Virus record (IMG/VR): IMGVR_UViG_3300033149_001657
Span: 1 to 64,000 of that record
Direction: 5' to 3' (one strand)
Length of the DNA stretch: 64,000 bases
From: a virus
Lineage: Duplodnaviria; Heunggongvirae; Uroviricota; Caudoviricetes
This document shows positions 3,281 to 49,460 of the stretch, piece after piece. The translations under genes were made by a program, and so were the position numbers. The notes under the pieces were generated by a model. That model was not told the DNA's origin and ran no database searches. It saw nothing but the letters and a program-made list of their open reading frames with translations. Numbering within the stretch: the stretch's first letter is position 1; each line of letters starts with the position of its first letter.

Positions 3281-3289
3281 CAGATAATT

Positions 3290-3937: not shown

Positions 3938-3939
3938 AC

Positions 3940-4197
3940 TTACCTCCTCAAATATATTGTTCTTTTGAGTCTCTCAGCTTCAGAATACCAGTAATCAGCA
4001 TCGTACTGAAGCTCCTTTAGTTTCTTCCTAAGCTCATCTATTTCTCTACGTAATCTACTTGTCTCTTCCTCAGTATAATATAAATCGTATTCAAGATTGT
4101 CATAACACTCTGAACATACTACTTTAGATAGATCCTCTATTTTGTTGTTACATTTGGAACAAACTAGCTGTCCTAGTTTACTCTCCTCATTATTCAA
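3940..4197 (-). CDS. zinc-ribbon / coiled-coil small protein
   Basis: Motifs CSKCNNK..CSECYD followed by a charged coiled-coil region. Confidence 0.4.
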   Translation of the reverse strand: MNNEESKLGQLVCSKCNNKIEDLSKVVCSECYDNLEYDLYYTEEETSRLRREIDELRKKLKELQYDADYWYSEAERLKRTIYLRR

Positions 4198-4291
4198 ACG
4201 TAAATTCCTCCTCTAATATTATCTGAATTATTCCCTCTGACTTTATCATGATCCCTGATATCTATACCTTGTGAGTCATGCTCTATCACGA

Positions 4292-4516
4292 CTATTCCTC
4301 ATCTTCAACTGGTTCTCCAATATAGGGGTTTCTAGAAAGCTTGTCGAGAATCTTCATTATCTCTTCATAGCTTTCTGAATCAGTCTTTTTTATTTTCTCA
4401 AGTTCTTGTCTAGCATGAAGAGTAAACATCACTTCACATCTGTCTCTAGTAACTAAGTATCTCAATTCAGCATAAAGCCACTTGAGCTTGTTTTCCAGAT
4501 ACTTAAGATAGTTCAT
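4292..4516 (-). CDS. hypothetical protein (74 aa)
   Basis: ORF in the gene chain. Confidence 0.35.
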   Translation of the reverse strand: MNYLKYLENKLKWLYAELRYLVTRDRCEVMFTLHARQELEKIKKTDSESYEEIMKILDKLSRNPYIGEPVEDEE

Positions 4517-4534
4517 GAGATATCCCTTCTATTC

Positions 4535-4771
4535 TTAGATCTTCCCAACAACAAAGTACAGCCATAGATCTTTCTTTCTTATCTGGATACTTCGAGCTCC
4601 ATAATAAGTACCTTCCACTGGAATGTTTAGTTCTCTACTGAGAAGATCTAGGTCTTTATTATCTACAAAGATACGAATCCATAGCGGTTGATTCTCTAAT
4701 CTTGGTAGATCTATTCTCACATCTGTTTCATCCAGTGTAACAACCTTACCAGTACCTTCTCTATACTTCAT
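4535..4771 (-). CDS. hypothetical protein (78 aa)
   Basis: ORF in the gene chain; 4-nt overlap with the upstream gene. Confidence 0.35.
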   Translation of the reverse strand: MKYREGTGKVVTLDETDVRIDLPRLENQPLWIRIFVDNKDLDLLSRELNIPVEGTYYGARSIQIRKKDLWLYFVVGKI

Positions 4772-5238
4772 TTCCTATCACCCAACTTTAGAAGATAATC
4801 CCACACAGCTAGAGTAGCTGCACAAGCTACATTAAGACATCTAACCTTGCCATTCATAGGCAGCTTTATTATGTCATCAGAGATAGATATGATCTCTTCA
4901 GGTACATTACCATCTTCTGGACCAACCACTATACATGGATCACTTTTCCACTGAAATGAAGGTATGTCATGTGCTCTTGGATGCAACTCCATGGATACCA
5001 GATATTCATTGTTGACATAGTCTACAAAATCACCAATAGAATCCATCATAGTGATGATGCTCCATGGTTCTCTTTTAGATAGTATCTTACGTTCCAGCCT
5101 CGATCTAACTAGGTCTCTCGGAGATACAACGATGAACTCTTCTGTTCCAACACCATCAGCTAATCTTAGAACATTATAGACGTTGATATATCGCTTTGGA
5201 GATATCATACAAATCTTCATTCTACTCATCAACTTCAA
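4768..5238 (-). CDS. SpoU/TrmH-family (SPOUT) RNA 2'-O-methyltransferase-like protein
   Basis: Motif 2/3 signature: IVVGPEDGNVP ... IKLPMNGKVRCLNVACAATLAVWDYL. Confidence 0.6.
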   Translation of the reverse strand: MKLMSRMKICMISPKRYINVYNVLRLADGVGTEEFIVVSPRDLVRSRLERKILSKREPWSIITMMDSIGDFVDYVNNEYLVSMELHPRAHDIPSFQWKSDPCIVVGPEDGNVPEEIISISDDIIKLPMNGKVRCLNVACAATLAVWDYLLKLGDRK

Positions 5239-5881
5239 ATCTGTATTCTACCTCATGATCTAGGAATTGTCTACCAAAACATCTTTCCTTAATAATCATA
5301 CAGTATTTTGGATCAATCTCAATACCAATACAAGATCTGTTTAGATCCTGACAGACTTTCATAGTAGTTCCACCACCAAGAAATGGATCAAGCACAACAT
5401 CACCTTCATCAGTTAACAATTCCACGATCTTCTTTACAAATCCTTCATGTTGACCCCACTTGTGGTATCTCTTATCCTTTCTCTCTGACTCATGTACATT
5501 ACACATCCATTCTGTTCTATAGGGTTTGCCCTTGGTAAAAGCAAGGACAGGTTTTGATCTAATCATCAGCTTCTTGTACCATACTCTGGGATTACCACCT
5601 CTGTGTAAAATTTCATATAACCAGAACCAATCTAAGTATGGAGTCATTAGCTGAAGTACATCTGGTAAGAACTGAGCTCCACAATAAGCAAATAGGTATC
5701 GTCCATCCTTGAGGAGTCTTTTCCCCTCTCTAGCTAGAGGCTCATATAGACAAATTCCTTCCTTTGTGTAAGGTGGATCTGTGATTATTAGATCGATGCT
5801 CTGGTCTTTCAGCTTGGGTAAGATCTTACAAGCATCTCCCTGAATTAACCAATAGAAATTCTTCATTACTATCTTCCACAC
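5222..5881 (-). CDS. DNA methyltransferase (N4-C/N6-A, beta-class order DPPY then FxGxG)
   Basis: Motifs LIITDPPYTKEG and VLDPFLGGGTTMKVCQDLNRSCIGIEIDPKYC. GTG start 13 nt after a GATAGTGACTA motif. Confidence 0.8.
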   Translation of the reverse strand: MWKIVMKNFYWLIQGDACKILPKLKDQSIDLIITDPPYTKEGICLYEPLAREGKRLLKDGRYLFAYCGAQFLPDVLQLMTPYLDWFWLYEILHRGGNPRVWYKKLMIRSKPVLAFTKGKPYRTEWMCNVHESERKDKRYHKWGQHEGFVKKIVELLTDEGDVVLDPFLGGGTTMKVCQDLNRSCIGIEIDPKYCMIIKERCFGRQFLDHEVEYRFEVDE

Positions 5882-6369: not shown

Positions 6370-6753
6370 TTAAAGATCTATAGCTAAAAGTGCTCTGATA
6401 AATCTCTCAGCTTCATACTTGTCTGGATTATAAATCAGTATCCAATCGTTTATTTTCTTTGATGATATAACCTTACGGTTATAGGTTCCTAGAATGACAC
6501 ATAATTCTTTTACCATATCGTGATATGTGTTATCAAACAAAAATCTGATGATTTCTGATGATCCTTCTAATGAAAGGAGCTCATCAGAGATATTCATTGA
6601 TAAGACAATTCTAGGTCTGAGATAGATAACAGTATCATTGTGTGTTGGTCTATGTTCTAGATGAACATCAACATCTATACCTTTCTCTCTAAAAAACTCT
6701 CTTATTTTCTCACGAGTAATAATAACTTCTTTCTCCACTAGAACCCTCTCCAC
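6370..6753 (-). CDS. hypothetical protein (127 aa)
   Basis: ORF in the gene chain. Confidence 0.35.
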   Translation of the reverse strand: MERVLVEKEVIITREKIREFFREKGIDVDVHLEHRPTHNDTVIYLRPRIVLSMNISDELLSLEGSSEIIRFLFDNTYHDMVKELCVILGTYNRKVISSKKINDWILIYNPDKYEAERFIRALLAIDL

Positions 6754-7022
6754 AATCCTTTCTCCTTAAGATATTCGATAGCTTTTAGTCTATTCTCATC
6801 TTCGTTAGCTTTTATTTTCTCTAAGTTTTCCTTACGTTCTTTAATTTCTTTATGCCATTCATCAAACGTAAGAATCCACCAATAGGAGGCATGTATATCT
6901 GATCTCTTAACTTCACACTGTCCACATATAACACATATTCTATAATCTGGTGTCTCATAGTGCCACTTGTGTAGATCAAGAGATTCACACATGAAACGTC
7001 TTATCTTACTAATTATTCTCAA
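6738..7022 (-). CDS. hypothetical protein with CxxC..C motif
   Basis: Motif CVICGQCEV; 94 aa. Confidence 0.35.
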   Translation of the reverse strand: MRIISKIRRFMCESLDLHKWHYETPDYRICVICGQCEVKRSDIHASYWWILTFDEWHKEIKERKENLEKIKANEDENRLKAIEYLKEKGLWRGF

Positions 7023-7793: not shown

Positions 7794-8393
7794 TCATTCC
7801 TTCATTTGACATTTTCTGAATATTGACACCATTCTAAATCTATGATTTGTACTCCCACTTATTCCTATCATACCAACAAGTTCTAGTTCATCTTTTCTAA
7901 ACATTGGAAGTACTTGATCTAACCAACATATGAATCCATTAGGTTTTGTGATTTTGACACATTCCTTAATTACTTTGTTTCTATTTACCATTGGATGTCC
8001 ATAATGTAGAGCATCTTCTTCACTGTATGGAGGATCAGCCAAAATAAGATCAAAGTAATCTTTGTCAAAATACTCTGATAGATTATGTGCATCACCTACT
8101 ATATCTGGATGAAGATCTGGATTAATATCAAATCTAATCTCTACTGGATAACCTATCAAATCATCTTCTGTTAAAGATCCAGAAAATAGATGGAGTACAG
8201 TCTCACAGTCTGGAAACAGAGCTGAAATCCTCTTAAGATATGAAGGTGGATATTCTCCATAGTATCCATGTTTTCTCTTGTAGTAGTTACCAATTATCCA
8301 TACTCCATGTACCCATCCTTTATCGTATATAAGTCTAGGATAGTTTGGAAAACATCTTGAATAGTTTCTAACTCTTTCTTCAAGTGATATCAC
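7794..8393 (-). CDS. DNA methyltransferase-like protein (DPPY motif)
   Basis: Motif LILADPPYSEED with upstream SGSL and downstream PNGFICWLD. Confidence 0.5.
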   Translation of the reverse strand: MISLEERVRNYSRCFPNYPRLIYDKGWVHGVWIIGNYYKRKHGYYGEYPPSYLKRISALFPDCETVLHLFSGSLTEDDLIGYPVEIRFDINPDLHPDIVGDAHNLSEYFDKDYFDLILADPPYSEEDALHYGHPMVNRNKVIKECVKITKPNGFICWLDQVLPMFRKDELELVGMIGISGSTNHRFRMVSIFRKCQMKE

Positions 8394-8466
8394 ATTTAAT
8401 TCCTCCTTTTCTTGTATTCGTAAATATCTCCTATATCATACTTGATATAGTCACTAAAGGATACTT

Positions 8467-8721
8467 CTACTGTATCACCATTATCCATAACAAAGTAGTA
8501 GTGATGATGAAATATTGGAATAAGAACTTACCAACTGGAATAAATATCGGTACAGTTCTCTCATATTTCTTAACAATCCTAGCTCGTACAGCTATCCATT
8601 CACCAGTAAAATGATAAATGATAATTCCTACAACAAGTCCTACTGCTAGTAATATAATTCCAGTAACAACTAAAAATTCTTTATCCATGCTCACTCTACC
8701 TTTATGATAGCTACTTTTCAT
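8467..8721 (-). CDS. small membrane protein
   Basis: Two hydrophobic helices (VVTGIILLAVGLVVGIIIY; FIITTTLLWIMVI). Confidence 0.35.
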   Translation of the reverse strand: MKSSYHKGRVSMDKEFLVVTGIILLAVGLVVGIIIYHFTGEWIAVRARIVKKYERTVPIFIPVGKFLFQYFIITTTLLWIMVIQ

Positions 8722-8728
8722 ATTCCGC

Positions 8729-9235
8729 TTATAAGCTGCTTCCTATTCTTATTATCTTGTCAGGCACGAAGCTTAGAGCATATTCAAACTTAGTAACTAG
8801 ATAATTTCTATACTCCTCATCAATACTTCTAAATCCATCTTCTACAAGTGGTAGTGGTTCACAGTAAAATATTATCTTCTTACCAGACATCTGATAATAT
8901 ATTTCTTTAGATCTAGATACTAGCTCATCACATTCTTCTTTAGTCATTCTGCCTTTATCATATAAATAAAGAGTATATGGAATGGTATCAATACTGCATC
9001 TATCCATGACAATATAATCAGCATTAAGCTCTACAAAATCTCTTTTAGCATAGAACTCTACTACCCACTTTTGAGATTTATATGTACCCATCTCATTAAT
9101 AGGATATGGACAATTTCGTATACCTTCCTCTCTGTATTCAACTTTGAATCCTAGGGACTTTAATAGAAGGTATGTAAATCTTGATCTAGTGGTCTTTCCA
9201 CTACACTGTACTCCAGAGAATATCAGACGTATCAT
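8729..9235 (-). CDS. P-loop NTPase / nucleotide-kinase-like protein
   Basis: Walker A FSGVQCSGKTT near the N-terminus; about 168 aa, the size of dNMP/polynucleotide kinases. Confidence 0.45.
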   Translation of the reverse strand: MIRLIFSGVQCSGKTTRSRFTYLLLKSLGFKVEYREEGIRNCPYPINEMGTYKSQKWVVEFYAKRDFVELNADYIVMDRCSIDTIPYTLYLYDKGRMTKEECDELVSRSKEIYYQMSGKKIIFYCEPLPLVEDGFRSIDEEYRNYLVTKFEYALSFVPDKIIRIGSSL

Positions 9236-9603
9236 TCCTCAACATCACCAAATTCGTGAGCTACAAGCTGTAAGATAGTAACTATTATAGACATAGGATC
9301 AGGATTCTCATCTATCTTCTCTTCTACTATAGTATCGTATACTTGAAGCACATATTCTCTAAGTCGATTGATGAACATATCAGCTAGATCTGAACTATAT
9401 CCATCCTCATCAGAGAACTCAAATGTATACTGAGTTATCTCACCTTCATAATTAGTTGCAAATGATATTTTGTGTTTTTCCTCTATGAATTGATGTATTT
9501 CTCCAAGTGCTTTGTCAAGCTCTTCGATAAATTCATCCTTATTCAAGACATCACCTCCTATGTGTAGAAATAAGCCAGTTGATTCTATGCATAACCATTC
9601 CAC
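9232..9603 (-). CDS. hypothetical acidic protein
   Basis: ORF in the gene chain. Confidence 0.35.
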   Translation of the reverse strand: MEWLCIESTGLFLHIGGDVLNKDEFIEELDKALGEIHQFIEEKHKISFATNYEGEITQYTFEFSDEDGYSSDLADMFINRLREYVLQVYDTIVEEKIDENPDPMSIIVTILQLVAHEFGDVEE

Positions 9604-9644
9604 ATTTCACACATTTCTCTATCTCTCATCCATCCCTTATTTCA

Positions 9645-9974
9645 TCAATCATTCAATACAATTCCCTTTGTACTAGATGTTTCTTCAAACTTCTCTTCTT
9701 CCAACACTATGCTACCATCCTCCTTAATTATCAAATACCCAAACCAATCATCCTTTTGATGTTTTCTATGAACAGCAAATCTCATCAGTTCACCTCTTCT
9801 ACACTCTGCCTCCCATATAGGCTCAAAAGGATCTTCCCTAAATAAAAACTCTAGTTCATGACAATCCAGTATAGGTTTAATAATTGTCTCTACAGCATTG
9901 AGCAGAGAGTATGCTTGATTGTATTTCTGAATAGCTTCATGAACAGAATTAAGATCTATCTTTCCTACCTGCAT
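9645..9974 (-). CDS. hypothetical protein
   Basis: ORF in the gene chain. Confidence 0.35.
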   Translation of the reverse strand: MQVGKIDLNSVHEAIQKYNQAYSLLNAVETIIKPILDCHELEFLFREDPFEPIWEAECRRGELMRFAVHRKHQKDDWFGYLIIKEDGSIVLEEEKFEETSSTKGIVLND

Positions 9975-10341
9975 TTTCTTTCTCTCTCAATTGTTTTCTA
10001 AGCTTCTTTATTTCTTTCTTTAACTCTTTATTTTCATTCTCTAGCTTTAAGACGTCTTTCCAGTATTGTGGTTGAAACATTAAATCCACTTCTACTATTG
10101 GTATGACTTCTCCCTCCTCTTTTCTTAGAGAAGATAGAAAATCTACCTGAATGTCATTGATGTCTAGCTGATCCAAAAACCTAGTAACTATTTCTGGATC
10201 ACATTCTACTATTATCTCATATATATGAGATATTTTTCTATACTTAATGAGTGCATCTGAGTCTGAGCATCCAACAGCTGCTCTTAGAAACCTCTCAAGT
10301 ATCTGAATCTTCTCTTTGTCAGAGATCTTTCCAATAGACAT
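9949..10341 (-). CDS. hypothetical protein with C-terminal coiled coil
   Basis: C-terminal segment KELKKEIKKLRKQLREKE. Confidence 0.35.
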   Translation of the reverse strand: MSIGKISDKEKIQILERFLRAAVGCSDSDALIKYRKISHIYEIIVECDPEIVTRFLDQLDINDIQVDFLSSLRKEEGEVIPIVEVDLMFQPQYWKDVLKLENENKELKKEIKKLRKQLREKENAGRKDRS

Positions 10342-10414
10342 ATCTAATCACCTCTCCAAACTTAATTTATTTGTGTAAAAGACGATTAAACGATAGTATC
10401 AATAAGTTACGAAC

Positions 10415-10756
10415 CTACAAAAGAGCTGGTAGAACCCTAATTATCTCAATGATGATTCCACTAACTCCAGTTATGAGAGCTGTGTACAGAGCTATTCTCT
10501 CCTTTCTGCTCATACTGTTTCCATTACAATGAGGCATACTCTCAAGTCTATGTACAGCTTCACCTAAAACGTCCAGTTTAGTGATAATCTTGTTATTCTG
10601 TTCGTAATAGTCTTTCTTAAAGTTCTTATAACTTAGCACTAGTTCTTTTGTGTCTTCAGACAGATTGTCAAGTCTTGTCTCAACACGTGTGAGTCTCTGT
10701 ACCACATCCAGTCTCCAATCATTCTTCTTATTTCCAGAGTTCATATGAAGCACCAT
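10415..10756 (-). CDS. hypothetical protein with C-terminal TM helix
   Basis: C-terminal hydrophobic segment ALITGVSGIIIEIIRVLPALL. Confidence 0.35.
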   Translation of the reverse strand: MVLHMNSGNKKNDWRLDVVQRLTRVETRLDNLSEDTKELVLSYKNFKKDYYEQNNKIITKLDVLGEAVHRLESMPHCNGNSMSRKERIALYTALITGVSGIIIEIIRVLPALL

Positions 10757-11291: not shown

Positions 11292-11660
11292 TTATGCCAC
11301 CACCACTATTAAGATAGATGCCTCATAAAACACTACAACTGTCAATATAGTTACTAATGTTATTCCAATAATAGAAGAGTATTTAAAATATTCTTTACCA
11401 AGAGCAAACGGATTCTTCTGTATTCGTTCATCATATATAAGTTGAATTCCAATTCCAGTTAGAATGTAATTAACTGGGTATGTAAATAGAAATGATGTTA
11501 TTATCAGAATAAGACCATGATGATAATGTTCCAGTATTTCCAGATAGTTGCTAAGTCTGTATATCTTACAGAAGTATCCATCAAAGTAATAGTCCCATAC
11601 AGAGCTAATTAGAGCTCCTATTAGAAATCCTAGTATCAGGAACCGAATCATTGCTCTCAC
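11292..11660 (-). CDS. multi-pass membrane protein
   Basis: Three or four hydrophobic helices. Confidence 0.4.
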   Translation of the reverse strand: MRAMIRFLILGFLIGALISSVWDYYFDGYFCKIYRLSNYLEILEHYHHGLILIITSFLFTYPVNYILTGIGIQLIYDERIQKNPFALGKEYFKYSSIIGITLVTILTVVVFYEASILIVVVA

Positions 11661-11814
11661 CTATAGGTTCAGCTTTCTCACATAAAGTTTCGTATCCTTC
11701 AGATCCACATATTACTTCTTCATCTGGAAATAGACCACACAATGTAAATGGATTTTCTTTTTTCCTATATTGATATTTACATGGAAAACCTATACTTCCC
11801 ATTTTATATCTCAC
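11605..11814 (-). CDS. small Cys-containing protein (uncertain)
   Basis: 69-aa ORF overlapping both neighbours; possibly real with the downstream gene starting at an internal Met. Confidence 0.2.
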   Translation of the reverse strand: MRYKMGSIGFPCKYQYRKKENPFTLCGLFPDEEVICGSEGYETLCEKAEPIGESNDSVPDTRISNRSSN

Positions 11815-12103
11815 CTGCTAGTAAGACTGAACCAAAATGTTTCACTGTCTTTAATAACCATTTCTTAGCTTGTTTATGATCAGGAATTCTAGTAACTATC
11901 CTAGCTTCACAATCTGATGAGAATATCTTACCCGTGATGTTTATTATGAACTCAAACTTATCACCATAATAATCAATCTCTACAGTAATACCACTATTAC
12001 TCCTGAACTTTATCTTACAAGAAGAATTGTAATTCACAATATATATGTCATTATGTTCTCTTACCAATTCATTCACGAACCTAGTCAGAGTATCTATAGG
12101 CAT
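11804..12103 (-). CDS. paralog-family small protein (cluster 1)
   Basis: Roughly 100 aa; conserved C-terminus ..SVLLAGEI*; homologous to the 12419 ORF. Confidence 0.5.
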   Translation of the reverse strand: MPIDTLTRFVNELVREHNDIYIVNYNSSCKIKFRSNSGITVEIDYYGDKFEFIINITGKIFSSDCEARIVTRIPDHKQAKKWLLKTVKHFGSVLLAGEI

Positions 12104-12106
12104 AAA

Positions 12107-12418
12107 TCACACCTCACTAGCTAAGAGTAGTGGTTTAAGAAGTTCAACAATAGACCTAATCCATCTAATTATTTTATCTGGATCAGATTCAAATACTCTG
12201 AATCTTACAAATGTACTTAAACCAACTTTTTCGATACGTAAACAGATAGAGACTATCAGATCATAATCATGTTCCAATTTATGAATATCTACTGAGAATT
12301 TATCACTACTATAAACTACTGAGTTTAAAGATTTTCCTTCAATCTTAATAGCATAGTTCTTTACAATATATTTTTCTATCTTCCTAACACGTTCATCGAT
12401 TTGAGATAATGAATACAC
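12107..12418 (-). CDS. paralog-family small protein (cluster 1)
   Basis: C-terminus ..LLLASEV*. Confidence 0.5.
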   Translation of the reverse strand: MYSLSQIDERVRKIEKYIVKNYAIKIEGKSLNSVVYSSDKFSVDIHKLEHDYDLIVSICLRIEKVGLSTFVRFRVFESDPDKIIRWIRSIVELLKPLLLASEV

Positions 12419-12721
12419 TTAGAGCTCACCAGCTAAAAGTACCTTGTTTACATATTCAATTACAGTTAGAATCCATTGTTTAGCCCTATCTTCATCTTCA
12501 ACTGAAGAAGAAATAGTAAGCAATGAATCCTCCATAAACATATTTCCCTTAGCCTGTATCTTTATATTAAAGCCATTTCTCCAGCTGGTGATTTTAATTA
12601 CTATATGTTCATTATTAGCGATCTTAATAGTACACTCAGTATCGAAATGTACAACATAGAACTCATCAATCTCTTTTATAATCTTATTTACAAACTTAGA
12701 TAATGGACTAATAATCATCAT
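12419..12721 (-). CDS. paralog-family small protein (cluster 1)
   Basis: C-terminus ..KVLLAGEL*; N-terminus aligns with the 11804 ORF. Confidence 0.5.
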   Translation of the reverse strand: MMIISPLSKFVNKIIKEIDEFYVVHFDTECTIKIANNEHIVIKITSWRNGFNIKIQAKGNMFMEDSLLTISSSVEDEDRAKQWILTVIEYVNKVLLAGEL

Positions 12722-12722
12722 C

Positions 12723-13088
12723 TTATAGCTCCTTAGATAATTTTACTGAGGATAGAATAGCAATGGTATCATCCAACCATTTCTCTAAGGAGGATAGATT
12801 TACTTCATATGTAGAAACACTTAGATACGTATTGTTTTGGTTAAGATAAATGGTTGCTACAGCTGATATTTTACTTGGTATCAATCCAGAGGACATTATT
12901 ATTATATAACATCCATTTTCTAGGAAACATTCAAAAGTACTGTAATCTTTACTGTGATTTTCTTCTCTTATCTTATATTTGGATAGCAGGATCTGTTTTA
13001 TCTGTTTATAGAATGACAATCTTACTTTCTGTAAGAGAGCATCATAGGTCTCATTATCTTTTATATCAAAATAATGTTCAGAAGTCAA
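12723..13088 (-). CDS. paralog-family small protein (cluster 1, divergent)
   Basis: C-terminus ..SVKLSKEL*. Confidence 0.45.
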   Translation of the reverse strand: MTSEHYFDIKDNETYDALLQKVRLSFYKQIKQILLSKYKIREENHSKDYSTFECFLENGCYIIIMSSGLIPSKISAVATIYLNQNNTYLSVSTYEVNLSSLEKWLDDTIAILSSVKLSKEL

Positions 13089-13098
13089 GATTCTTCCC

Positions 13099-13443
13099 TT
13101 ATAGTTTCTGAGACAATAGAATTGAATCCAAGATATTCCTACATTTATTTATCCATCTCTTAATGTAGTCAACATCAAAATGAACTGTATAAAGTGATAC
13201 AAACGTAGCTCCCAAATAAGATGTCTCATAGAAATGTGCTATCAATCCGACATTTATTAGTCTCATCTGATTGTATGATACAGTAACAAAGTACGAATTA
13301 TGTAGCTTAAAAAATACTGAAGTAGTGTCCTCATCTACTCTCTCCTCATCTATACCATATTTTTCATCCAAATATTCCTTGATAGCGATTACTCTCTCAT
13401 CATTTAATAAATCATCTAAAGTAAGATTAGTCATAGACCTCAC
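13099..13443 (-). CDS. paralog-family small protein (cluster 1, divergent)
   Basis: C-terminus ..SILLSQKL*. Confidence 0.45.
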   Translation of the reverse strand: MRSMTNLTLDDLLNDERVIAIKEYLDEKYGIDEERVDEDTTSVFFKLHNSYFVTVSYNQMRLINVGLIAHFYETSYLGATFVSLYTVHFDVDYIKRWINKCRNILDSILLSQKL

Positions 13444-13782
13444 CTACAAGCTTTTAGCTATTCTTCTAAGATGATCTTTGTAATTCTGCCATTCTATATA
13501 AAGATAGATAAATATCCAAGCAACCCATGTATACTGAACTATTCTGCACAATTGTATGAACGTAACTCCAAGATCCTTCTCCAACGGTAAAACATAAGAT
13601 CCTAGTCCAATTAATCCAAGTCCAAACTGCCCAAGAATAGCTAGAAGTATAGAGTAAGATATAATCTCTTCCTTGATATCATCCCATTCTATATTTTTGA
13701 ATCTAAGATGTATTGATGTATAGTACTTATTTAACAAATACCACACAAAGTATAAATAAATCTTGTATCTTTTTGAATACAT
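13444..13782 (-). CDS. membrane protein
   Basis: Hydrophobic segments. Confidence 0.4.
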   Translation of the reverse strand: MYSKRYKIYLYFVWYLLNKYYTSIHLRFKNIEWDDIKEEIISYSILLAILGQFGLGLIGLGSYVLPLEKDLGVTFIQLCRIVQYTWVAWIFIYLYIEWQNYKDHLRRIAKSL

Positions 13783-13925
13783 TGTCTATCATCTCCAACT
13801 AATACACAGATCAGATGGATCTACAATCTTCCTGTGTAATCTACAATAATAAAATGATTCCATAATTTTACTACTAGTTACCAGAACAGAGTACTTGCAG
13901 GTCAGACATGATCTAGCTACCAGTT

Positions 13926-14759
13926 TCATTCTTCATCAATCCTCCTAATAATATATGGACACTTAGAATAGCTCTTCATAGGATAGTAACTATCTATTAC
14001 ATTTAATATCTCATATGGCTCTTCAATTTTAGCTATTGAGGAAGAAAATGAGCATGGAGATATAGAGCCGTCTGGAAATACTGATATTATCTTTCTACCA
14101 CAACCACACTCTTCTATCTTTCCAATTTCAAGAGCTATACTTTCATCTACATATAAGTCAAATAGCACACTTGAAATTTTAATTGTTCTCTTTAACTCAC
14201 TAGCTCCATAATTTAGCTCATAGAACTTAGGTTGTAAAGCATAGAATTTTAGTCCTTCTGTTTTTAAATAGTTAAAGACTAAAGGCATAATTCCAAGAGC
14301 TATCTTATCCAGTATAAGGTAGTTTACTCCTACTTCAAAGTTAGACAAATTAGATAAGCTATCTATTGTACTAGATATGTTCCGTATTGAACCGTTAGAC
14401 TTAACCTTATGATGATCTACTGATACTGATACTAAGTCTACGTATTCCAATGATTCAATTACTTCTGAGTTTATTATTGAACCATTGGTAGTGAGAGACA
14501 CATTCATATCACAGTGTTTAGCTGTTTTAGCTAGTTTAGTTACTATCTTTGGAAATAATAGTGGCTCTCCACCACCTATGGCTATCTGTGGAATATTATA
14601 TTCACTAGCTGCCTTTATTAGATCACAGAACCAATCCACATCTTTCTCTACAGTAGATTTGTGAATATAGCAGAATGGACAATCGAAATTACATTTGGTA
14701 GTAAAGTGTATCGATAATACTTCAATCATCATATCCATTATTTCTGCACCATTCTTCAA
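13926..14759 (-). CDS. radical SAM enzyme (CxxxCxxC), possible C-terminal auxiliary Cys cluster
   Basis: Motifs CNFDCPFCY, GGGEPLL, and C-terminal CGCGRK..SPCSF. Confidence 0.7.
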   Translation of the reverse strand: MKNGAEIMDMMIEVLSIHFTTKCNFDCPFCYIHKSTVEKDVDWFCDLIKAASEYNIPQIAIGGGEPLLFPKIVTKLAKTAKHCDMNVSLTTNGSIINSEVIESLEYVDLVSVSVDHHKVKSNGSIRNISSTIDSLSNLSNFEVGVNYLILDKIALGIMPLVFNYLKTEGLKFYALQPKFYELNYGASELKRTIKISSVLFDLYVDESIALEIGKIEECGCGRKIISVFPDGSISPCSFSSSIAKIEEPYEILNVIDSYYPMKSYSKCPYIIRRIDEE

Positions 14760-15246
14760 ACATACCTAATGAACCACCACTAGAATATGGAAATGATGAA
14801 CATATTCTACATATCTTAGCAAAAGCCTCATACGAGTTAATATCTCCATCACTTATCCAGAGCTTTAAACACTCATCTGTATATGACATAAAAATCTGAC
14901 CCTTAGATTTCTTATCTATTAGACGTACTGTTGTATAATTACCACAAGATGACCAAGATGAGATCGTCCTTCTAGCTTTCTCTGGTAACTTATTTATTTT
15001 TACTCCTATTGCTTTATCACCACAGTGATTAAATATCTCTATATCATCTGGAGATACTTCACTTACTACCTCTATTATACGTCTTGTCTTGCATAACGGT
15101 ATCTCAGAATATGTTAAACATGAAGCTCTAATAATTAGAGCAAGATTAGTCTCTTCAATAATTTGTTTAAGTAAGCTCTTTATCTCTTCAATACCTCTAA
15201 CTCCAGTACGTACCACTATCTCTGAACAATTAGGATGTATCATCAC
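14722..15246 (-). CDS. HPNCSE-motif protein, paralog A
   Basis: Starts MMIHPNCSEIVV; ends SSGGSLGMFEEWCRNNGYDD. Paralogous to the next gene. Confidence 0.45.
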   Translation of the reverse strand: MMIHPNCSEIVVRTGVRGIEEIKSLLKQIIEETNLALIIRASCLTYSEIPLCKTRRIIEVVSEVSPDDIEIFNHCGDKAIGVKINKLPEKARRTISSWSSCGNYTTVRLIDKKSKGQIFMSYTDECLKLWISDGDINSYEAFAKICRICSSFPYSSGGSLGMFEEWCRNNGYDD

Positions 15247-15793
15247 TGTAACCCCAATGCAAACAATCCTTTACTATGTCTTCATATCCATTCTTCCTAC
15301 ACCATCTCAGAAAATATGTGAGAGATCCCCCACCGTTTGGAAATGGTGAAGTCTCAAGTGCTCTAGATATGTCTGCAAATATATTGAAAGAATCCTCATC
15401 TCCATCTCCAATATTGAACTCTACAAAATCATCATCCAAACTAAGAAACACAGATCCATTCCCTCTAGACACATAGACAGATACATAATCATTATTCATC
15501 AACCATGATGGTAACTTCCTGACCAAGCTGTGAGGCAGCTTATCTTTGTGAATTCCAATATGTCTTACACCATAAGTATCTGCTATAGTCACATCATCAA
15601 GATCAATTTCTTGATATATATGTTCTCTATCGTAAAGTATTGATAGAGGAGTCTTAGAGTACGAGGTTATCCATTCATCCACAGCCACTGCAGAACTGGT
15701 CTTTTCTAGTACTGATCTTATCAGACTTTTTAGATCATCTAAATCTTCAAATTCAACCTTGATCACGAGTTCTGAACAGTTAGGATGAATCAT
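15230..15793 (-). CDS. HPNCSE-motif protein, paralog B
   Basis: Starts MIHPNCSELVI; contains NGGGSLTYFLRWCRKNGYED. Confidence 0.45.
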   Translation of the reverse strand: MIHPNCSELVIKVEFEDLDDLKSLIRSVLEKTSSAVAVDEWITSYSKTPLSILYDREHIYQEIDLDDVTIADTYGVRHIGIHKDKLPHSLVRKLPSWLMNNDYVSVYVSRGNGSVFLSLDDDFVEFNIGDGDEDSFNIFADISRALETSPFPNGGGSLTYFLRWCRKNGYEDIVKDCLHWGYSDDTS

Positions 15794-15802: not shown

Positions 15803-16033
15803 TCAGATCAACACCATCATTTTGTATTCATCAGATTCATGTTTCCAACACTGAGCACTTAACAATCTCTCAATATCAAAATCCGATAGATTATTTAAAC
15901 CTTCTTTCTCTATGAAACACTTGAAACACAGAGGTTCACAACCTTCTTCACATGAAAAATTTTCTCTTATGATTGGTTCACACTTCCATTCTCTACCACA
16001 TTTCTTGCATCTTCTCGTAATCATGGATATCAT
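15803..16033 (-). CDS. zinc-ribbon small protein
   Basis: Motifs CKKCGREWKCEP...CEEGCEPLCFKC. Confidence 0.4.
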   Translation of the reverse strand: MISMITRRCKKCGREWKCEPIIRENFSCEEGCEPLCFKCFIEKEGLNNLSDFDIERLLSAQCWKHESDEYKMMVLI

Positions 16034-18344: not shown

Positions 18345-19292
18345 CTACTCATCGGATTTTGGTAAAGAGTATATCATTGGATTTCCTTGTTCATCCGTAG
18401 ACACTATTAGAACATCAACATTCGGTGCTATCTCTTTAAGAGCTTCTAAATATAGATATAATTTTGCTAAGTCCTCTGCATCATCGATACCAGCTGCTCT
18501 AGCTATCATCTCTATAGATTCTCTAGTAGCATTAGCAACTATCAATCTAGTCTCAGCTTCAGCTTGAGCTATTCGTATCTTCTGTTGTGCCTCTGCATCA
18601 GCCAGAACCAATATACGTTCTCTCTCAAACTCTGCTTGTATTTTCTGTTGTTCAGCTACCATCTTATCTTCGATAGCCTGCATGTATTTCTCTGGTAATG
18701 CTATATTCCTTAAATCAAATTCCAAGTGTATTAGAGCTCCTTTAAGAGACTCTGTGTTACGTAGAGCATCGAATACAGCTTCTTGAATAGCATACGCTAC
18801 TTCCTCTCTCCTAGTTATCATCTGTGTAGCTGTAAAGTTCTTAGTAACAAATCTGATAGTCTCTCTTACTGTAGAAGCTATAGCTCTGTCTTCCCAGTCT
18901 AAGTTTGGATACGATAGGTAAAGATCTTTGAGTTTTTCTGGACATAGACTCCATCGTACCATAATGTCTATAGTAGCTTCTAGCTGATCAGACGTAAAGC
19001 ACTTAACAGCAGGGTATTCTGCATAAATATCAGTTCCGTCTCCCCACATCCCCACAGATTCTGTAGCATAGTAAATGTATACTGTTCTATACCATGGCAT
19101 CTTTACAAACCACGTAGGTCCAAGTATTGGACCAGATATTGTACCAGTCATTGGATCCACTAACAATACACCATATCCTGTATCCACTGATCTAAACATG
19201 GTACCAAAGAATATACCTAGAGATGCACCAGCTACTATACCAATCACTAGTAGTATTTTTAGGAGTCTATTTGATCTATCATTCTCCCACAT
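18345..19292 (-). CDS. SPFH/band-7 (prohibitin/HflK-stomatin) family membrane protein
   Basis: N-terminal TM helix; Ala/Glu/Gln-rich coiled region QKIQAEFERERILVLADAEAQQKIRIAQAEAETRLIVANATRESIEMIARAAG typical of band-7 proteins. Confidence 0.75.
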   Translation of the reverse strand: MWENDRSNRLLKILLVIGIVAGASLGIFFGTMFRSVDTGYGVLLVDPMTGTISGPILGPTWFVKMPWYRTVYIYYATESVGMWGDGTDIYAEYPAVKCFTSDQLEATIDIMVRWSLCPEKLKDLYLSYPNLDWEDRAIASTVRETIRFVTKNFTATQMITRREEVAYAIQEAVFDALRNTESLKGALIHLEFDLRNIALPEKYMQAIEDKMVAEQQKIQAEFERERILVLADAEAQQKIRIAQAEAETRLIVANATRESIEMIARAAGIDDAEDLAKLYLYLEALKEIAPNVDVLIVSTDEQGNPMIYSLPKSDE

Positions 19293-19294
19293 TT

Positions 19295-19537
19295 TTATTC
19301 CTCCTGTGACCCTGAAGATTTATTGTTTATTGCCCATTTGCCTTCAGCTACCAACATGTAAACTTCCTTACCTTCATATGTTCTTAGAAGTTCTAGAGTG
19401 GTATCTCTGCTTGTACGTTTAGATAATCCTATAACTATATTTCCCTCTGCATCCATAGAGATATATTCTATTCTAGCATAGATTCTAATATTTGGTAGTC
19501 TTATATCCATAAATTCAATCCTCCTCATAAAGCACAT
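19295..19537 (-). CDS. small protein, possible OB-fold NfeD C-domain-like
   Basis: 80 aa; beta-rich segment GNIVIGL...GKEVYMLVAEGKW. Confidence 0.3.
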   Translation of the reverse strand: MCFMRRIEFMDIRLPNIRIYARIEYISMDAEGNIVIGLSKRTSRDTTLELLRTYEGKEVYMLVAEGKWAINNKSSGSQEE

Positions 19538-19926
19538 TTAAGAGCTAATGGCTCTATTTTCTTTCTCAGATCTTGTGGTATCTTGTTGAAAAGATACTGA
19601 AGGGATTCATCCCATGTGCCACGAGCTAATAATATGAGACGTAGAGCATCCAACAACAGTCTCCTATTAAAGTACATTTCTGTAGCTGTTTCATCGGAAA
19701 AGAAATTGGTAGCATGATCAATAAACTCACAGTAATCCTTGTATTCTTCATATACCTTAAACTTATGAAGGTATTTTCTTACTGGATCATTCTCCGATAT
19801 CGTTATTTTCACTACTACATTAGATTTTTCACTTGGTAAAACAAAAGAAACTAGGTTTTCAAGATAGCTTATTGGTGAAATGATTTTGCTATTGACTTTG
19901 TACACAGACAAGAATACTAGTCTCAT
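19525..19926 (-). CDS. hypothetical protein
   Basis: 133-aa ORF. Confidence 0.4.
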   Translation of the reverse strand: MRLVFLSVYKVNSKIISPISYLENLVSFVLPSEKSNVVVKITISENDPVRKYLHKFKVYEEYKDYCEFIDHATNFFSDETATEMYFNRRLLLDALRLILLARGTWDESLQYLFNKIPQDLRKKIEPLALKCAL

Positions 19927-21191
19927 TTTATCTTCACTACCAGATCAAAGTAGTCTGGTACTCTTCTTTCATCACCATTTCTGGTAATAACCCATATCAC
20001 AGTCATGTCTGGATTTATCATGTCCTGTGTAGGAAACACTCCATACCCATCAGTGATATAAATCAACAGATCAACGTCATCTCCATCCTCCTGAATCTTC
20101 TGAAATATAGGTCTAAAATCTGTACCTCCTCCACCTTTAAGATGTAATGTGTTTAAGTCGTATTCTGACGTAATGGTTTGAGCTTCATAAAGCATTGCAT
20201 CAGAACTATAGATAGTGAGTTCTGCATTAGGTACTTCTCTGAATATCCCTATTATCTGTGATAATCCATCTCTTAGATCTTCCATACTCATGGAGCCAGA
20301 TGTATCTATAACTACTACTCCCTTTATCCCTGACTTTAGCACACTTGGTAAGTAATATCCAGCAGCTATCGATTTCTTAGAAGGTCTAGAGTAAGTATAG
20401 TCATAAGGCATATGTCTCACAATCAACTGAGGTAAATACTCCAACCAATTGATCTGTGGTTCTATCAAATCTTCTATCAATCTCTCTATACCCAATGGAG
20501 CTTTACCCATCGAGCTGGCATGATGCCATGCATCTTTTAATACCTTTCTCCAGTTAACAGTCTCTTTGTCATCTAATGCACCTTTTGGTATTCCCAGTTT
20601 ATCTAAATCAGACTTTGATATAATACCATCCTCTACTTTTTTCTTAGCTTCCTCTATATCTCTTCTGGTTATATGTTTATCTAAGCTACCACGTTTTTTA
20701 CATACTACAATTACTGAAGGAATACCACTATATCCATTAGGGTTCTTCTGTTTAAATGGACAGTTATCACAGTCACCATTGCATTCATATCTTTTAAGAT
20801 CTGGTAACTTGTCATATATTTCTTCCCATGCCATATCTTCGTACTCTCTCATGTATAAAGCTCCCAATGGAAGTTGAAATGTTTGTAGTATCAATGGATT
20901 TATAGCTAAGTCTTGAGCCATATTAGCTTTAAAATGATCTCTTCCTTCTTCTCTCTCCAGATGTCTAAGAGCCACATGCATCACTTCATGACATATTAAC
21001 CCCTTAACCTGTTCAATACTTAATTTCTTTATGTAATCTGGATTGTAATATACAACTCCATAAGGAGTAACAGCTGCTGTGTCTTCATTGGGATCTGGTT
21101 TGAATCTTAATGACATACATAGTACTCCAAAGAATGGCTGTTTAGATATCATCTGAACTCTAGCTTTAGTGATCTTCTCTTCTGGAGACAT
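19923..21191 (-). CDS. VWA-domain protein with N-terminal HExxH metallopeptidase-like domain (MoxR partner)
   Basis: HExxH motif in LICHEVMHVALRHLE; MIDAS-like motif VVVIDTSGSMS in the C-terminal half; immediately downstream of a MoxR ATPase with a 3-nt gap. Confidence 0.7.
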   Translation of the reverse strand: MSPEEKITKARVQMISKQPFFGVLCMSLRFKPDPNEDTAAVTPYGVVYYNPDYIKKLSIEQVKGLICHEVMHVALRHLEREEGRDHFKANMAQDLAINPLILQTFQLPLGALYMREYEDMAWEEIYDKLPDLKRYECNGDCDNCPFKQKNPNGYSGIPSVIVVCKKRGSLDKHITRRDIEEAKKKVEDGIISKSDLDKLGIPKGALDDKETVNWRKVLKDAWHHASSMGKAPLGIERLIEDLIEPQINWLEYLPQLIVRHMPYDYTYSRPSKKSIAAGYYLPSVLKSGIKGVVVIDTSGSMSMEDLRDGLSQIIGIFREVPNAELTIYSSDAMLYEAQTITSEYDLNTLHLKGGGGTDFRPIFQKIQEDGDDVDLLIYITDGYGVFPTQDMINPDMTVIWVITRNGDERRVPDYFDLVVKIK

Positions 21192-21193
21192 GT

Positions 21194-22450
21194 TTACTCA
21201 TCCTCATCTTCTCTTTCCATAGATAAAATATATTTCCCTATTGTTGGAACAAATAGACTCCATTCTTTAAGCTTCAGTACGTTTCTATCGAAGAAATCAG
21301 GCATCATGCTCTTTATCATCTTTAGCATGAATGCACAATATTCTCTAGGCATTCTGTCTCCAATTATAAATATCCTCCTTAGAACCTCTCTAGCTTTGTC
21401 TTCAGGTTTGTTCTTTACATAATAATAGAGATACTCTGTAAGATTGGTACATAGAGCATACAGTAGATCGTTATCTTTAGGCATCTCTATTTTATCTGGG
21501 TTCTTGATGAATTTTTCTGGAGGAGCCAATCTGTCTCTTATTCTTAGAAACGATACAAATTCCTGAGCTACATAAGATCCTACTCTACCACTAGCATATA
21601 CAAATACTCTGTCTATATCTTCAACTCCTTTAATCATATCGCTTACTTTTTCCCATGTTCTAGGTGTAGCAAAAGCTTTCTCCTTACTCTTTGGATTGAA
21701 TGTGTAGATATTAGATGTTTTCACCCTTAGAAACGATATTATTCTAGGATCTATATCGTTGTTTACTGCCCATAAAGTCCATTCCTCTACTGTAGGAGTA
21801 GCTAATTCATACCATGCAAATCTATTGCATAATGGAGCTTCAAATCGAAATTCTGGACATCCATCTATATGTCCTCTATTACCAGCTGCTACTACTATCC
21901 ATCCATCTGGTAATTCATAGTCTCCTAGAGCTCTATCGTTGATTAGCTCCCATATTGCATTTCTAACCAGTGGTGGAGCTAATGGTAGCTCATCTGCAAA
22001 TATGATTCCTCTGCCTTCTCTAGGAAACCACACTGGAGCTGTCCACTTGGTTGTGTAGTCTATTATCTGATAGTCTCCTTTCCACTTAGCTGTAAAGATA
22101 TCAAAGTGTTTTATCGGTACTAGTTCCATATGTCCATTGTATTTTACTATTGCATAGTCTTCTGGTAGTCCTAGTACTTCACCAGCATCTTTCTGAGAGA
22201 ATCTCTGATCTACTAGACAGAATTTATCTGGATGAAGTATAGGAGCTTTCGTCTCAAGAAACTCAAGTGAATATTCACTAGCTAATCTTCTGGCAGCTTC
22301 TCTTACTGAACAACTTTTACCGATTCCTATTGCTCCTTGTATAAATAGAGATCCTTTTACTTCATATGTTCTCTTTATAATATCTATTAGCTGTTTATGA
22401 TTTACTACATATATTGGTCTCTCCAAGTCTTGTATCATTTTCTCAGACAT
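21194..22450 (-). CDS. MoxR-like AAA+ ATPase (AAA_5 type)
   Basis: Walker A GAIGIGKSCS; Walker B IIFADELPLAPP; sensor VVAAGN. SD GGAGGTAATTGGT before ATG. Confidence 0.7.
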   Translation of the reverse strand: MSEKMIQDLERPIYVVNHKQLIDIIKRTYEVKGSLFIQGAIGIGKSCSVREAARRLASEYSLEFLETKAPILHPDKFCLVDQRFSQKDAGEVLGLPEDYAIVKYNGHMELVPIKHFDIFTAKWKGDYQIIDYTTKWTAPVWFPREGRGIIFADELPLAPPLVRNAIWELINDRALGDYELPDGWIVVAAGNRGHIDGCPEFRFEAPLCNRFAWYELATPTVEEWTLWAVNNDIDPRIISFLRVKTSNIYTFNPKSKEKAFATPRTWEKVSDMIKGVEDIDRVFVYASGRVGSYVAQEFVSFLRIRDRLAPPEKFIKNPDKIEMPKDNDLLYALCTNLTEYLYYYVKNKPEDKAREVLRRIFIIGDRMPREYCAFMLKMIKSMMPDFFDRNVLKLKEWSLFVPTIGKYILSMEREDEDE

Positions 22451-49455: not shown

Positions 49456-49460
49456 AATAA

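Follow-up and report, generated by a model that had tools for sequence, protein, structure and literature searches.

The DNA analysed here (hereafter, the window) is the 64,000-nucleotide stretch at positions 1 to 64,000 of the IMG/VR virus record IMGVR_UViG_3300033149_001657, and it carries a radical SAM enzyme (rSAM) gene together with two paralogous genes, A and B, and several small neighbours (Table 1; compared loci are denoted by L and a number). The sequence-only reading described an rSAM gene followed by two paralogs. All three ORFs are present where it placed them, overlapping as described (A/B, 14 nt; B/rSAM, 17 nt), but all are minus-strand genes, which puts the paralogs upstream and not downstream of the rSAM, with transcription running from A through B to the rSAM. 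The rSAM gene further overlaps the following 46-aa gene by 4 nt (ATGA), and these overlaps indicate one translationally coupled operon. The TTG start given for the rSAM in the ORF list is probably too far upstream; we prefer the ATG, because it is preceded by GGTG, a Shine-Dalgarno-like motif, and because relatives open with M(I/M)MIEVLS.

Table 1 Features of the module and other genes referred to in the window.
Feature	Position	Strand	Remarks
46-aa Cys4 protein	13789–13929	−	Homologs only in L002, L003 and L060
Twitch-domain radical SAM enzyme, 270 aa from ATG 14738	13926–14738	−	ORF list: TTG 14759, 277 aa
Twitch (truncated SPASM) region, C-x12-G-x4-C-S-F ... C-P-Y, three invariant Cys	13959–14108	−	Alignment of 11 orthologs
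CX3CX2C motif CNFDCPFC, ligand of the radical-SAM [4Fe-4S] cluster	14670–14693	−	Invariant in all orthologs
Paralog B, 173 aa from ATG 15243	14722–15243	−	ORF list: GTG 15246
Paralog B tag P-N-C-S-E-I-V, codons 4–10	15214–15234	−	Translation verified
Paralog A, 187 aa, NCSE-tagged, undescribed ~180-aa acidic family	15230–15793	−	
Paralog A tag P-N-C-S-E-L-V, codons 4–10	15764–15784	−	Translation verified
Cys-rich 76-aa zinc-finger-like protein	15803–16033	−	Directly upstream of paralog A
P-loop NTPase, 245 aa	16035–16772	−	Opens conserved block; weak P-loop Pfam matches
Terminase large subunit	44996–46399		
Second rSAM, SPASM type, 415 aa	48208–49455	+	Unrelated to the Twitch enzyme

The genes around the trio differ in how widely they are retained. 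Orthologs of the P-loop NTPase occur in six loci (L001, L002, L005, L012, L013, L014), the window protein being 90% identical to the L002 copy. The Cys-rich protein is syntenic with the module across the core viral clade, with the P-loop ATPase on one side and a tagged protein or rSAM on the other in the window, L001, L002, L012, L014, L010, L015, L004, and L062. The 46-aa Cys4 protein, on the other hand, is lineage-specific and probably not core to the module. A small Cys-rich ORF that is ATGA-coupled to a Twitch rSAM is the classic arrangement of a RiPP precursor and its maturase, and this peptide could be the true substrate, with the paralogs as bystanders. However, beyond the window and its three homologs the peptide is absent beside all other orthologous rSAMs, including that of L004, which is 60% identical, and we regard this explanation as very improbable.

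The rSAM identity proposed from sequence agrees with its cluster-binding motif (Table 1) and with a PF04055 match (54 bits, cutoff 29.5; 2.8e-14), which place the protein in the radical SAM superfamily; the GGGEP sequence, a GGE-type SAM-binding motif, is invariant among orthologs. Exactly three C-terminal cysteines are invariant across the 11 aligned orthologs, and the equally invariant C-x12-G-x4-C hairpin aligns to that of CteB and SkfB. This spacing falls within the C-x9-15-G-x4-C pattern of SPASM/Twitch domains, whose C-terminal beta-hairpin binds an auxiliary Fe-S cluster. The full SPASM motif C-x2-C-x5-C-x3-C (at least 7 Cys) is absent. Because the hairpin is followed by just one more conserved Cys (C-P-Y), the enzyme is a Twitch-type (truncated SPASM) radical SAM protein and not a full SPASM enzyme. 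In the Pfam search, the window protein itself fell below the PF13186 (SPASM) gathering cutoff of 21.5 bits, which the distant orthologs in L013 and L029 passed (23.2 and 24.3 bits, profile positions 1–45 of 67). The full-length matches among PDB profiles were SkfB, SuiB, PqqE, CteB, and anSME, all of which modify peptides or proteins. The structure model of the rSAM is of low confidence (pLDDT 63). No RRE (peptide-recognition) domain was detected in the window enzyme, which starts directly at the rSAM core; the distant orthologs of L013, L027, and L029 are extended N-terminally by ~45 aa (PEGLVFYD..LNREE..KLG), a segment that had no Pfam match but resembles, by eye, the start of a SPASM peptide maturase. 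A Twitch domain is by definition a shortened SPASM domain with a single auxiliary cluster; ribosomal peptides are the substrates of most SPASM enzymes characterised so far, and small-molecule Twitch enzymes such as BtrN and MoaA exist as well (PMC9012708).

Three better-known identities were considered and rejected. Among named families, prokaryotic viperin (pVip) scores best (NF038283, 79 bits; PADLOC pVip, 84 bits; PDB 6b4c and 7n7i) and is of similar size (~270 aa), but only the N-terminal half aligns (residues 5–129), whereas the C-terminal half here is a three-Cys Twitch domain; we know of no viperin with such a domain. The NF038283 score (79.4 bits) compares with a cutoff of 180 and that of TIGR04278 (36.8 bits) with one of 450, both restricted to residues 14–129, and the PADLOC match spans only positions 5–120 of 257. 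MoaA (GTP 3',8-cyclase, also a Twitch enzyme) scored 56 bits against 325 (TIGR02668) and 47.6 against 284 (TIGR02666); its C-terminal Cys spacing differs from the C-x17-C-x30-C found here, and no Moco pathway genes lie nearby. Viperin and MoaA were thus rejected because of scores below the cutoffs together with the Twitch C-terminal domain. A glycyl-radical activase and its partner, an idea drawn from the conserved GG and Cys, would require a different activase clade (NrdG2, 43.5 bits vs. a cutoff of 131; PFL-AE, 30 bits in the PDB profile search) and a different partner fold: the partner has no RVxG(F/Y/W) glycyl loop, its GG sits in (H)DGGS, and its fold is not the glycyl-radical barrel.

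The two upstream proteins are paralogs (34% identical over their full length; BLASTP, E = 4e-40) with shared ends, both opening with M(M)IHPNCSE and closing with ...GGSLxxFxxWCRxNGY(D/E)D. They matched no family in Pfam, PHROG, NCBIfam, PADLOC, or PDB, and no known fold was recovered. They represent an undescribed family of ~180 aa, mostly acidic and fast-evolving, with no detectable fold relative. The model of a tagged protein is a well-folded globular domain (~pLDDT 90 outside the tail). Divergence is much greater than for the enzyme: between the window and L002, identity is 88% for the rSAM, 65% for paralog A, and 29–43% for paralog B. The ortholog of paralog B in L003 is 61% identical, whereas the syntenic L002 copy is only 29% identical. 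Copy number also varies, from one to five tagged proteins per enzyme locus (five in L062+L063 and four in L020, with one enzyme each), and the duplication in the window belongs to this variable array. Among ~60 family sequences, no enzyme-partner fusion was found.

The most constant part of these proteins is a short N-terminal tag with the consensus x-(P)-N-C-S-E-(L/I/A)-V, in which C6, S7, and E8 are conserved in at least 90% of the family. It is located on a flexible, predicted disordered tail (residues 1–5, pLDDT <50) that leads into the first beta-strand, which begins at E8. Across loci, the tag Ser is encoded by all six codons, both TCN and AGY, and the Cys, Glu, Asn, and Pro codons vary as well; this synonymous variation rules out a nucleotide-level explanation and points to selection on the protein. 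The tag also extends beyond the family. Proteins starting with NCSE that were missed by the family HMM were found in L027 (9382–10002), L029 (9014–9508), L008 (6581–7000), L020 (2527–2877, 5472–6014, and 7099–7707), and L024 (961–1311). When compared with the family using hhalign, their likeness was confined to the first 30 columns (Prob 95.5%, E = 1.4e-8), which run from the tag through beta1 into the beginning of alpha1. The seven-residue tag is the only feature common to several otherwise unrelated neighbours of the enzyme.

A second conserved patch (SDGD, SDCD, or EQHC, then (H)DGG(S/H)), in which Asp, His, and Cys interchange across subfamilies, suggests a metal or ligand site and raises the question of whether the tagged proteins are accessory subunits (a scaffold, specificity factor, metal or cluster carrier, or second enzyme) of an rSAM whose substrate is a nucleic acid or a small molecule, for instance a nucleotide, as with viperin and MoaA. 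This idea fits the globular partner model and the fact that, over its N-terminal half, the enzyme scores best against prokaryotic viperins and MoaA among named families. These matches, however, cover only the generic N-terminal half and stay far below the cutoffs (79 vs. 180 bits and 56 vs. 325 bits, respectively), and the GG patch is missing in some copies that keep the tag (L002 B' and P0013). In addition, one to five copies, divergence outside the tag, and unrelated tag bearers are ill-suited to a stoichiometric partner. We consider an accessory role unlikely, if a serious alternative.

To determine how far enzyme and tagged proteins occur together, we compared loci from other viruses, counting as orthologous those rSAMs that scored 110–400 bits on the subfamily HMM (the other rSAM of the window scores 38 bits). 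An orthologous rSAM lies adjacent to, or at most 6 kb from, a tagged protein in ~16 independent viral lineages (the window, L002, L003/L060, L062+L063, L014, L012, L010/11, L005-7, L008/9, L013, L019, L020/21, L023, L024, L027, and L029). Family members are absent from all 31 control IMG/VR phage loci of 20 kb with generic rSAMs (37–71 bits). The suggestion that the trio is an enzyme with a duplicated partner or substrate module thus gains support from co-occurrence elsewhere, and the profile searches returned no known family that would speak against it.

Most of the positive lineages fall in a single broad group of viruses, which also has the P-loop ATPase and Cys-rich proteins in common, so that inherited synteny could account for part of the linkage. 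In its strong form, this means that rSAM and tagged proteins function independently and merely share the early-gene block of one lineage. The recurrence of P-loop ATPase, Cys-rich protein, tagged protein, and rSAM as a block in the core clade fits such a history, as do separations of up to 4.7–5.4 kb in L013 and L023. Two loci count against strict coupling: the L061 locus, on a Thermoplasmatota MAG chromosome, has three tandem family members with no rSAM within 8 kb, and the 1.2-kb L004 contig lacks a tagged gene, the rSAM coming directly after the Cys-rich protein. Nevertheless, the pair persists while gene order, spacing, and neighbours change. The rSAM lies between two tagged genes in L008, a tagged gene lies two genes upstream of it in L020, and in L027 and L029 a tagged protein is directly upstream of the rSAM and the P-loop ATPase of the block was not detected. 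Distant loci retain only the tag of the tagged proteins. Independence of the two genes is, in our assessment, improbable. A gene in L027 resembles, by eye, a peptidoglycan amidase.

The window is viral: besides a terminase large subunit sharing ~26% identity with its counterparts in T5-like phages, it encodes a minor tail protein and a ConA/laminin-G protein of tail-fibre-like character. As had been noted from the sequence, it encodes a second, unrelated rSAM (Table 1). Neither the window region nor paralog A had a match among 50,697 phage genomes (blastn, tblastn), and the rSAM gave only weak N-terminal matches, to Campylobacter phage rSAMs. The viruses with the module form a clade of uncultivated tailed viruses whose hosts are probably archaea. 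A close viral relative is represented by a 3.5-kb contig binned in a Ca. Woesearchaeota MAG, and family members occur in the Thermoplasmatota MAG chromosome; this MAG evidence for archaeal hosts is suggestive and falls short of proof. One relative comes from a Guaymas Basin sediment metagenome (3300021469). Literature searches returned no description of this module.

The tag might instead have no connection with the rSAM and serve as a signal for targeting or cleavage, directing proteins to the capsid, where prohead protease would cut after Glu and the products would be packaged and injected. Prohead proteases recognise L/I-x-E in T4 and S/A/G-x-E in phiKZ; here, several unrelated proteins share a short N-terminal motif ending in Glu, 5–17 residues from the start, and the family evolves fast, as is often seen in injected effectors. 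The distribution of the tag, however, follows the rSAM and not virion genes. In the window it is N-terminal only in the two paralogs and on no structural protein, and three tagged genes occur in the cellular archaeal chromosome of L061. The invariant Asn-Cys-Ser also exceeds what protease positions P3–P1 need. A capsid signal is, on balance, quite unlikely.

Since the pairing is kept in related viruses, the enzyme may well modify the tag chemically. Linkage, the control loci, the tracking of the enzyme by the tag, codon variation, the disordered tail, copy number, evolutionary rates, and enzyme class all argue for tagged proteins as substrates, and the reading we favour, to which we give nearly an even chance, is that one enzyme modifies many such proteins. 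The module comprises one small Twitch rSAM and one to five fast-evolving tagged proteins, the trio in the window being its local form. In the proposed mechanism, the tagged tail would enter the rSAM active site and the thiolate of the invariant tag Cys would bind the auxiliary cluster at the iron that its three Cys leave free, as has reportedly been suggested for CteB and SkfB, both sactisynthases. A hydrogen would be taken from Cys6, Ser7, or Glu8 of the tag by the 5'-deoxyadenosyl radical, giving either a thioether cross-link or an oxidised Cys or Ser (formylglycine-like), and the modified proteins might then serve as viral effectors. What the analysis shows is the gene linkage, the class of the enzyme, conservation of the tag at protein level, and a new fold in the partner; modification at the tag and the type of reaction are inferred.

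Characterised systems offer partial parallels for such tag modification. SkfB and CteB, which form Cys-S to C-alpha thioethers in ribosomal peptides, share the rSAM core and C-terminal C-x12-G-x4-C beta-hairpin, SkfB also having a single truncated (Twitch) auxiliary-cluster domain, and a Cys-containing partner is encoded alongside, often in multiple copies here. Unlike leader-core peptides, the partners here are folded ~180-aa proteins with a short N-terminal tag; no RRE domain was detected, there is no protease or exporter, the context is viral, and scores are far below the family cutoffs. The anSME profile aligns through the first SPASM hairpin (positions 12–229), and the proposed rSAM target would likewise be a short Cys/Ser motif near the N-terminus of a full-size protein. 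In contrast, the SPASM domain of anSME is complete and carries two auxiliary clusters, whereas only three C-terminal Cys are conserved here; the sulfatase motif C/S-x-P/A-x-R is absent, the tag being N-C-S-E, and the partner does not have a sulfatase fold. QhpD, which forms Cys-to-Asp/Glu thioethers in the protein subunit QhpC, and PapB-type ranthipeptide maturases (weak NCBIfam match to PapB, 5.4e-12; 45.6 bits vs. a cutoff of 340) resemble our case in having a Cys near an acidic residue (C-S-E). Their spacing pattern is C-x3-D/E, however, not Cys-x-Glu as here, and the module has no amine dehydrogenase context.

A broader formulation, which we offer tentatively as having somewhat less than an even chance, is that the portable N-C-S-E tag marks diverse fast-evolving proteins, mostly viral and a few archaeal, for covalent modification by a dedicated Twitch rSAM. 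This would amount to a RiPP-like maturation of full-size folded proteins, with which viruses that probably infect archaea may arm an expandable effector array. In such effectors, the copy number and rapid divergence would suggest conflict with the host. To our knowledge, few rSAMs modify proteins rather than short peptides (the main examples are anSME, QhpD, and the glycyl-radical activases), and virus-encoded protein-modifying rSAMs are essentially uncharacterised. The small 270-aa enzyme should be tractable in vitro. Even if modification does not occur at the tag, the module is a clean and testable association of two genes, conserved in a viral group about which little is known. If it does, the module would represent a new radical SAM reaction on proteins with a possible minimal tagging handle, and it would reveal a class of viral effectors.

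The two paralogs (A and B) and the radical SAM (rSAM) gene singled out by the sequence-only reading form a real trio of overlapping ORFs, as ORF calling confirmed, and the CNFDCPFC motif together with a score above the PF04055 cutoff identifies the enzyme. The overlaps measure 14 nt (A/B), 17 nt (B/rSAM), and 4 nt (ATGA, between the rSAM gene and a 46-aa Cys4 ORF). The rSAM start was placed at the ATG: this is where relatives open (M(I/M)MIEVLS), and it is preceded by a GGTG motif. A and B are indeed paralogs with matching ends: their full-length identity is 34% (BLASTP, E=4e-40), and both have an N-terminal MIHPNCSE and a C-terminal GGSLxxFxxWCRxNGY(D/E)D. Adjacency and overlap held, but the paralogs do not follow the enzyme, contrary to the earlier description: because all three ORFs lie on the minus strand, transcription runs from A through B to the rSAM gene.

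Neither paralog matched Pfam, PHROGs, NCBIfam or PADLOC. In a word-indexed search across 5.8 billion proteins, the query and a single 65% relative were the only matches. An exhaustive profile scan against 1.84 billion representatives recovered 35 family clusters, nearly all of 170-215 aa, and a further profile search gave 27 clusters at 90% identity; none from either profile search carried an informative name or Pfam domain. The family is mostly acidic (median pI 4.9), and about 60 sequences included no fusion with the rSAM. Positions conserved at >=90% are C6, S7, and E8 in x-P-N-C-S-E-L-V (hereafter, the tag), G155 and G156 in (H)DGG(S/H), and F161 and W164 in F-x-x-W-C; an additional patch alternates by subfamily (SDGD, SDCD or EQHC). 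Upstream of paralog A, two relatives (L001 and L002) encode a 97-102-aa protein corresponding to the family N-terminal lobe only (family HMM: 37.0 and 41.5 bits, respectively), which has lost Cys-Ser-Glu and has no counterpart in the window.

We fetched 63 related loci (L001-L063), called their ORFs, and scanned them with family and rSAM subfamily HMMs; orthologous rSAMs scored 110-400 bits on the latter and the window's other rSAM 38 bits. The order A, B, rSAM (overlapping in the window) is also found in L003/L060, with an N-domain fragment, A, B', and rSAM in L002/L025, and a family member, a Cys-rich protein, and rSAM in L014. The overlapping contigs L062 and L063 (GCA_029935795.1), once joined, read P-loop ATPase, Cys-rich protein, five tandem family paralogs (the first with a degenerate tag, APDLLSL), and rSAM. 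Family member and rSAM are adjacent in L005-L007 and are separated by about 1 kb (L012/L026), 1.1 kb (L019), 1.6-2.2 kb (L010/L011/L018), 4.7 kb (L013) or 5.4 kb (L022/L023) in other loci. Elsewhere, a tagged protein, rSAM, and a family member follow one another in that order (L008/L009), a tagged gene lies two genes upstream of rSAM with three more 1.4-3 kb downstream (L020/L021), or a tagged protein overlaps rSAM immediately upstream (L027) or precedes it by 370 nt (L029); in L024 both are present, each cut by contig ends. Tagged copies number one to five per locus. Flanks in L015-L017 (2-2.6-kb contigs) are too short for a co-occurrence call. The reverse scan (rSAM against IMG/VR) brought up 31 more phage loci, whose rSAMs are generic (37-71 bits), and 0/31 contain a family member. 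There are two exceptions to the pairing: a 60%-identical rSAM directly after a Cys-rich protein on a 1.2-kb contig (L004) without a tagged gene, and three tandem tagged family genes in L061 (one encoding 412 aa, with an additional region at its C-terminus), for which an 8-kb neighbourhood contains no rSAM. The L061 segment is genuinely chromosomal, from a Thermoplasmatota MAG (intein-bearing ribonucleotide reductase, proteasome alpha subunit, FtsZ, histidine kinases), and its genes are a cellular version of the family. Given these arrangements, synteny alone is an unlikely explanation of the pairing, and the proposal of an enzyme with a duplicated partner or substrate is supported when put to the refuting test named for it, as the paralogs match no known family and co-occur with rSAM elsewhere. 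One end of L003 translates as ...MCIRDR..., the signature of a Nextera adapter; the public record here contains an artefact of assembly rather than biology.

Scanning 5,570 ORFs for CSE[LIVAFM] within the first 45 residues recovered every family member, with only three apparent chance matches, and added proteins beside rSAM that the family HMM had missed (L008, L020 [three], L024, L027, and L029). These align with one another at M1 and C-S-E only, and their alignment with the family is limited to 30 columns that take in the tag, beta1, and the beginning of alpha1 (hhalign Prob 95.5%, E=1.4e-8). The tag Ser is encoded by six different codons, TCN as well as AGY, and codon choice also varies for Pro, Asn, Cys, and Glu; therefore, the tag is conserved at the protein level. 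Within the window, N-terminal CSE occurs in the two paralogs only. By sequence, the tag is the conserved link between the rSAM and its neighbours, and a targeting or cleavage signal independent of the rSAM is improbable. The 109-kb relative L002 shares with the window 88% identity in the rSAM, 90% in the neighbouring P-loop ATPase, 65% in paralog A, and 29% in syntenic paralog B (43% to its best match).

The window is a tailed-virus genome (terminase, minor tail protein, ConA-like fibre protein) of about 34% GC, with nearly all genes on one strand; cultured phages include no close relative of it. Guaymas Basin hydrothermal sediment (metagenome 3300021469) yielded one relative, and part of a closely related virus is binned in a Ca. 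Woesearchaeota MAG; together with the Thermoplasmatota family genes and an ERCC4/HhH nuclease gene in L005, this suggests archaeal hosts. L027 may be a bacteriophage because one of its genes resembles, by eye only, a peptidoglycan amidase. The second rSAM is unrelated to that of the trio and best matches AmcB, DynA, and anSME-like peptide maturases; with the three unannotated ORFs that come after it (257, 220, and 206 aa) it makes up most of the main plus-strand block, where GC skew turns positive. Like the window, L005, L008, and L010 have DUF2201 or MoxR/VWA and Band-7 genes, there close to the module. The raised GC over the tail-fibre-like gene may reflect horizontal acquisition of the receptor-binding module. 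Five further tandem paralogs (pairwise identity 15-25%) share the C-terminus ...W(I/L)xK....LL(A/S)x(E/K)(L/I/V) and evolve fast between relatives.

Features of the window and related loci
Sequence	Feature	Positions	Strand	Remarks
Window	Five tandem paralogs	11804-13443	-	about 100-120 aa
Window	Radical SAM gene	13926-14738	-	ATG at 14738; ORF list has TTG 14759
Window	Paralog B	14722-15243	-	173 aa counted from ATG
Window	Paralog A	15230-15793	-	187 aa
Window	Cys-rich zinc-finger-like protein	15803-16033	-	76 aa; between P-loop ATPase and tagged genes
Window	SPFH/Band-7 protein	18345-19292	-	grouped with next two (18345-22450)
Window	DUF2201 metallopeptidase, VWA-like domain	19923-21191	-	
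Window	MoxR-like ATPase	21194-22450	-	
Window	RNA ligase domain protein	26995-28293	-	432 aa; PF09414, 1.2e-13
Window	Isolated ORF	43935-44681	+	
Window	Second rSAM, full SPASM	48208-49455	+	415 aa
Window	Second rSAM and three ORFs	48208-51504	+	
Window	High-GC region	52001-56000		GC 0.39-0.42 (about 0.34 elsewhere); spans 1063-aa ConA/laminin-G tail-fibre-like gene
L001	N-terminal-lobe gene	1264-1557		
L002	N-terminal-lobe gene	9696-10004		
L002	Family of window 11804-13443	12017-14046		
L003	Adapter-like end	1-110		
L012	Family of window 11804-13443	4564-4863, 6721-7020		
L012	Cys-rich zinc-finger-like family	100-5854		>10 copies; much expanded in relatives
L013	rSAM N-terminal extension	11295-11440		
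L027	rSAM N-terminal extension	9881-10010		
L029	rSAM N-terminal extension	9875-10010		
L061	Three tandem family genes	7986-10542		
L062	Joined contig	528-2203		
L063	Joined contig	3-1219		

The best named matches of the trio's rSAM are prokaryotic viperins and MoaA, through the generic N-terminal half only. Both identities were rejected, with 79 bits against a cutoff of 180 (NF038283) and 56 bits against 325 (TIGR02668), each match covering that half alone. That the tagged proteins are accessory subunits in small-molecule or nucleotide chemistry is somewhat unlikely. For an eight-ortholog profile, alignment to SkfB, SuiB, PqqE, anSME, and TigE extends through the C-terminal region. Exactly three Cys are invariant there in 11 orthologs (C-x12-G-x4-C-S-F ... 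C-P-Y), the C-x12-G-x4-C hairpin aligns to those of CteB and SkfB, and two distant orthologs score above the Pfam SPASM cutoff, but over the first two-thirds of the model only. Twitch is a truncated SPASM domain holding one auxiliary cluster (PMC9012708), and these three features therefore make the rSAM Twitch-type, with sactisynthases as its closest full-length structural relatives. Three Cys ligands would leave one auxiliary-cluster iron without a conserved Cys ligand. Distant orthologs also carry an N-terminal extension of ~45 aa (PEGLVFYD...LNREE..KLG), missing from the window enzyme, that by eye resembles the start of SPASM-maturase peptide-binding domains and has no Pfam match.

The enzyme is conserved, its partners diverge fast and vary in number, and even unrelated neighbours share a short invariant motif on a flexible terminus. 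Taken together, this best fits a single enzyme that serves many substrates, as in RiPP maturases with their precursor families and anSME with sulfatases. This pattern favours modification of the tag, and we tentatively propose, as a possibility short of probable, that the Twitch rSAM modifies N-C-S-E. By analogy with sactisynthases, the thiolate of the tag Cys may coordinate the auxiliary cluster and the 5'-deoxyadenosyl radical may attack a neighbouring carbon, which would give a thioether or an oxidised residue. It is very improbable that the true substrate is the downstream 46-aa peptide, which is restricted to the closest relatives. Our literature search found no description of this module. 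The enzyme class is already known, and what is new is the partner family, the tag, and their association; the module would be an rSAM maturase with protein substrates.
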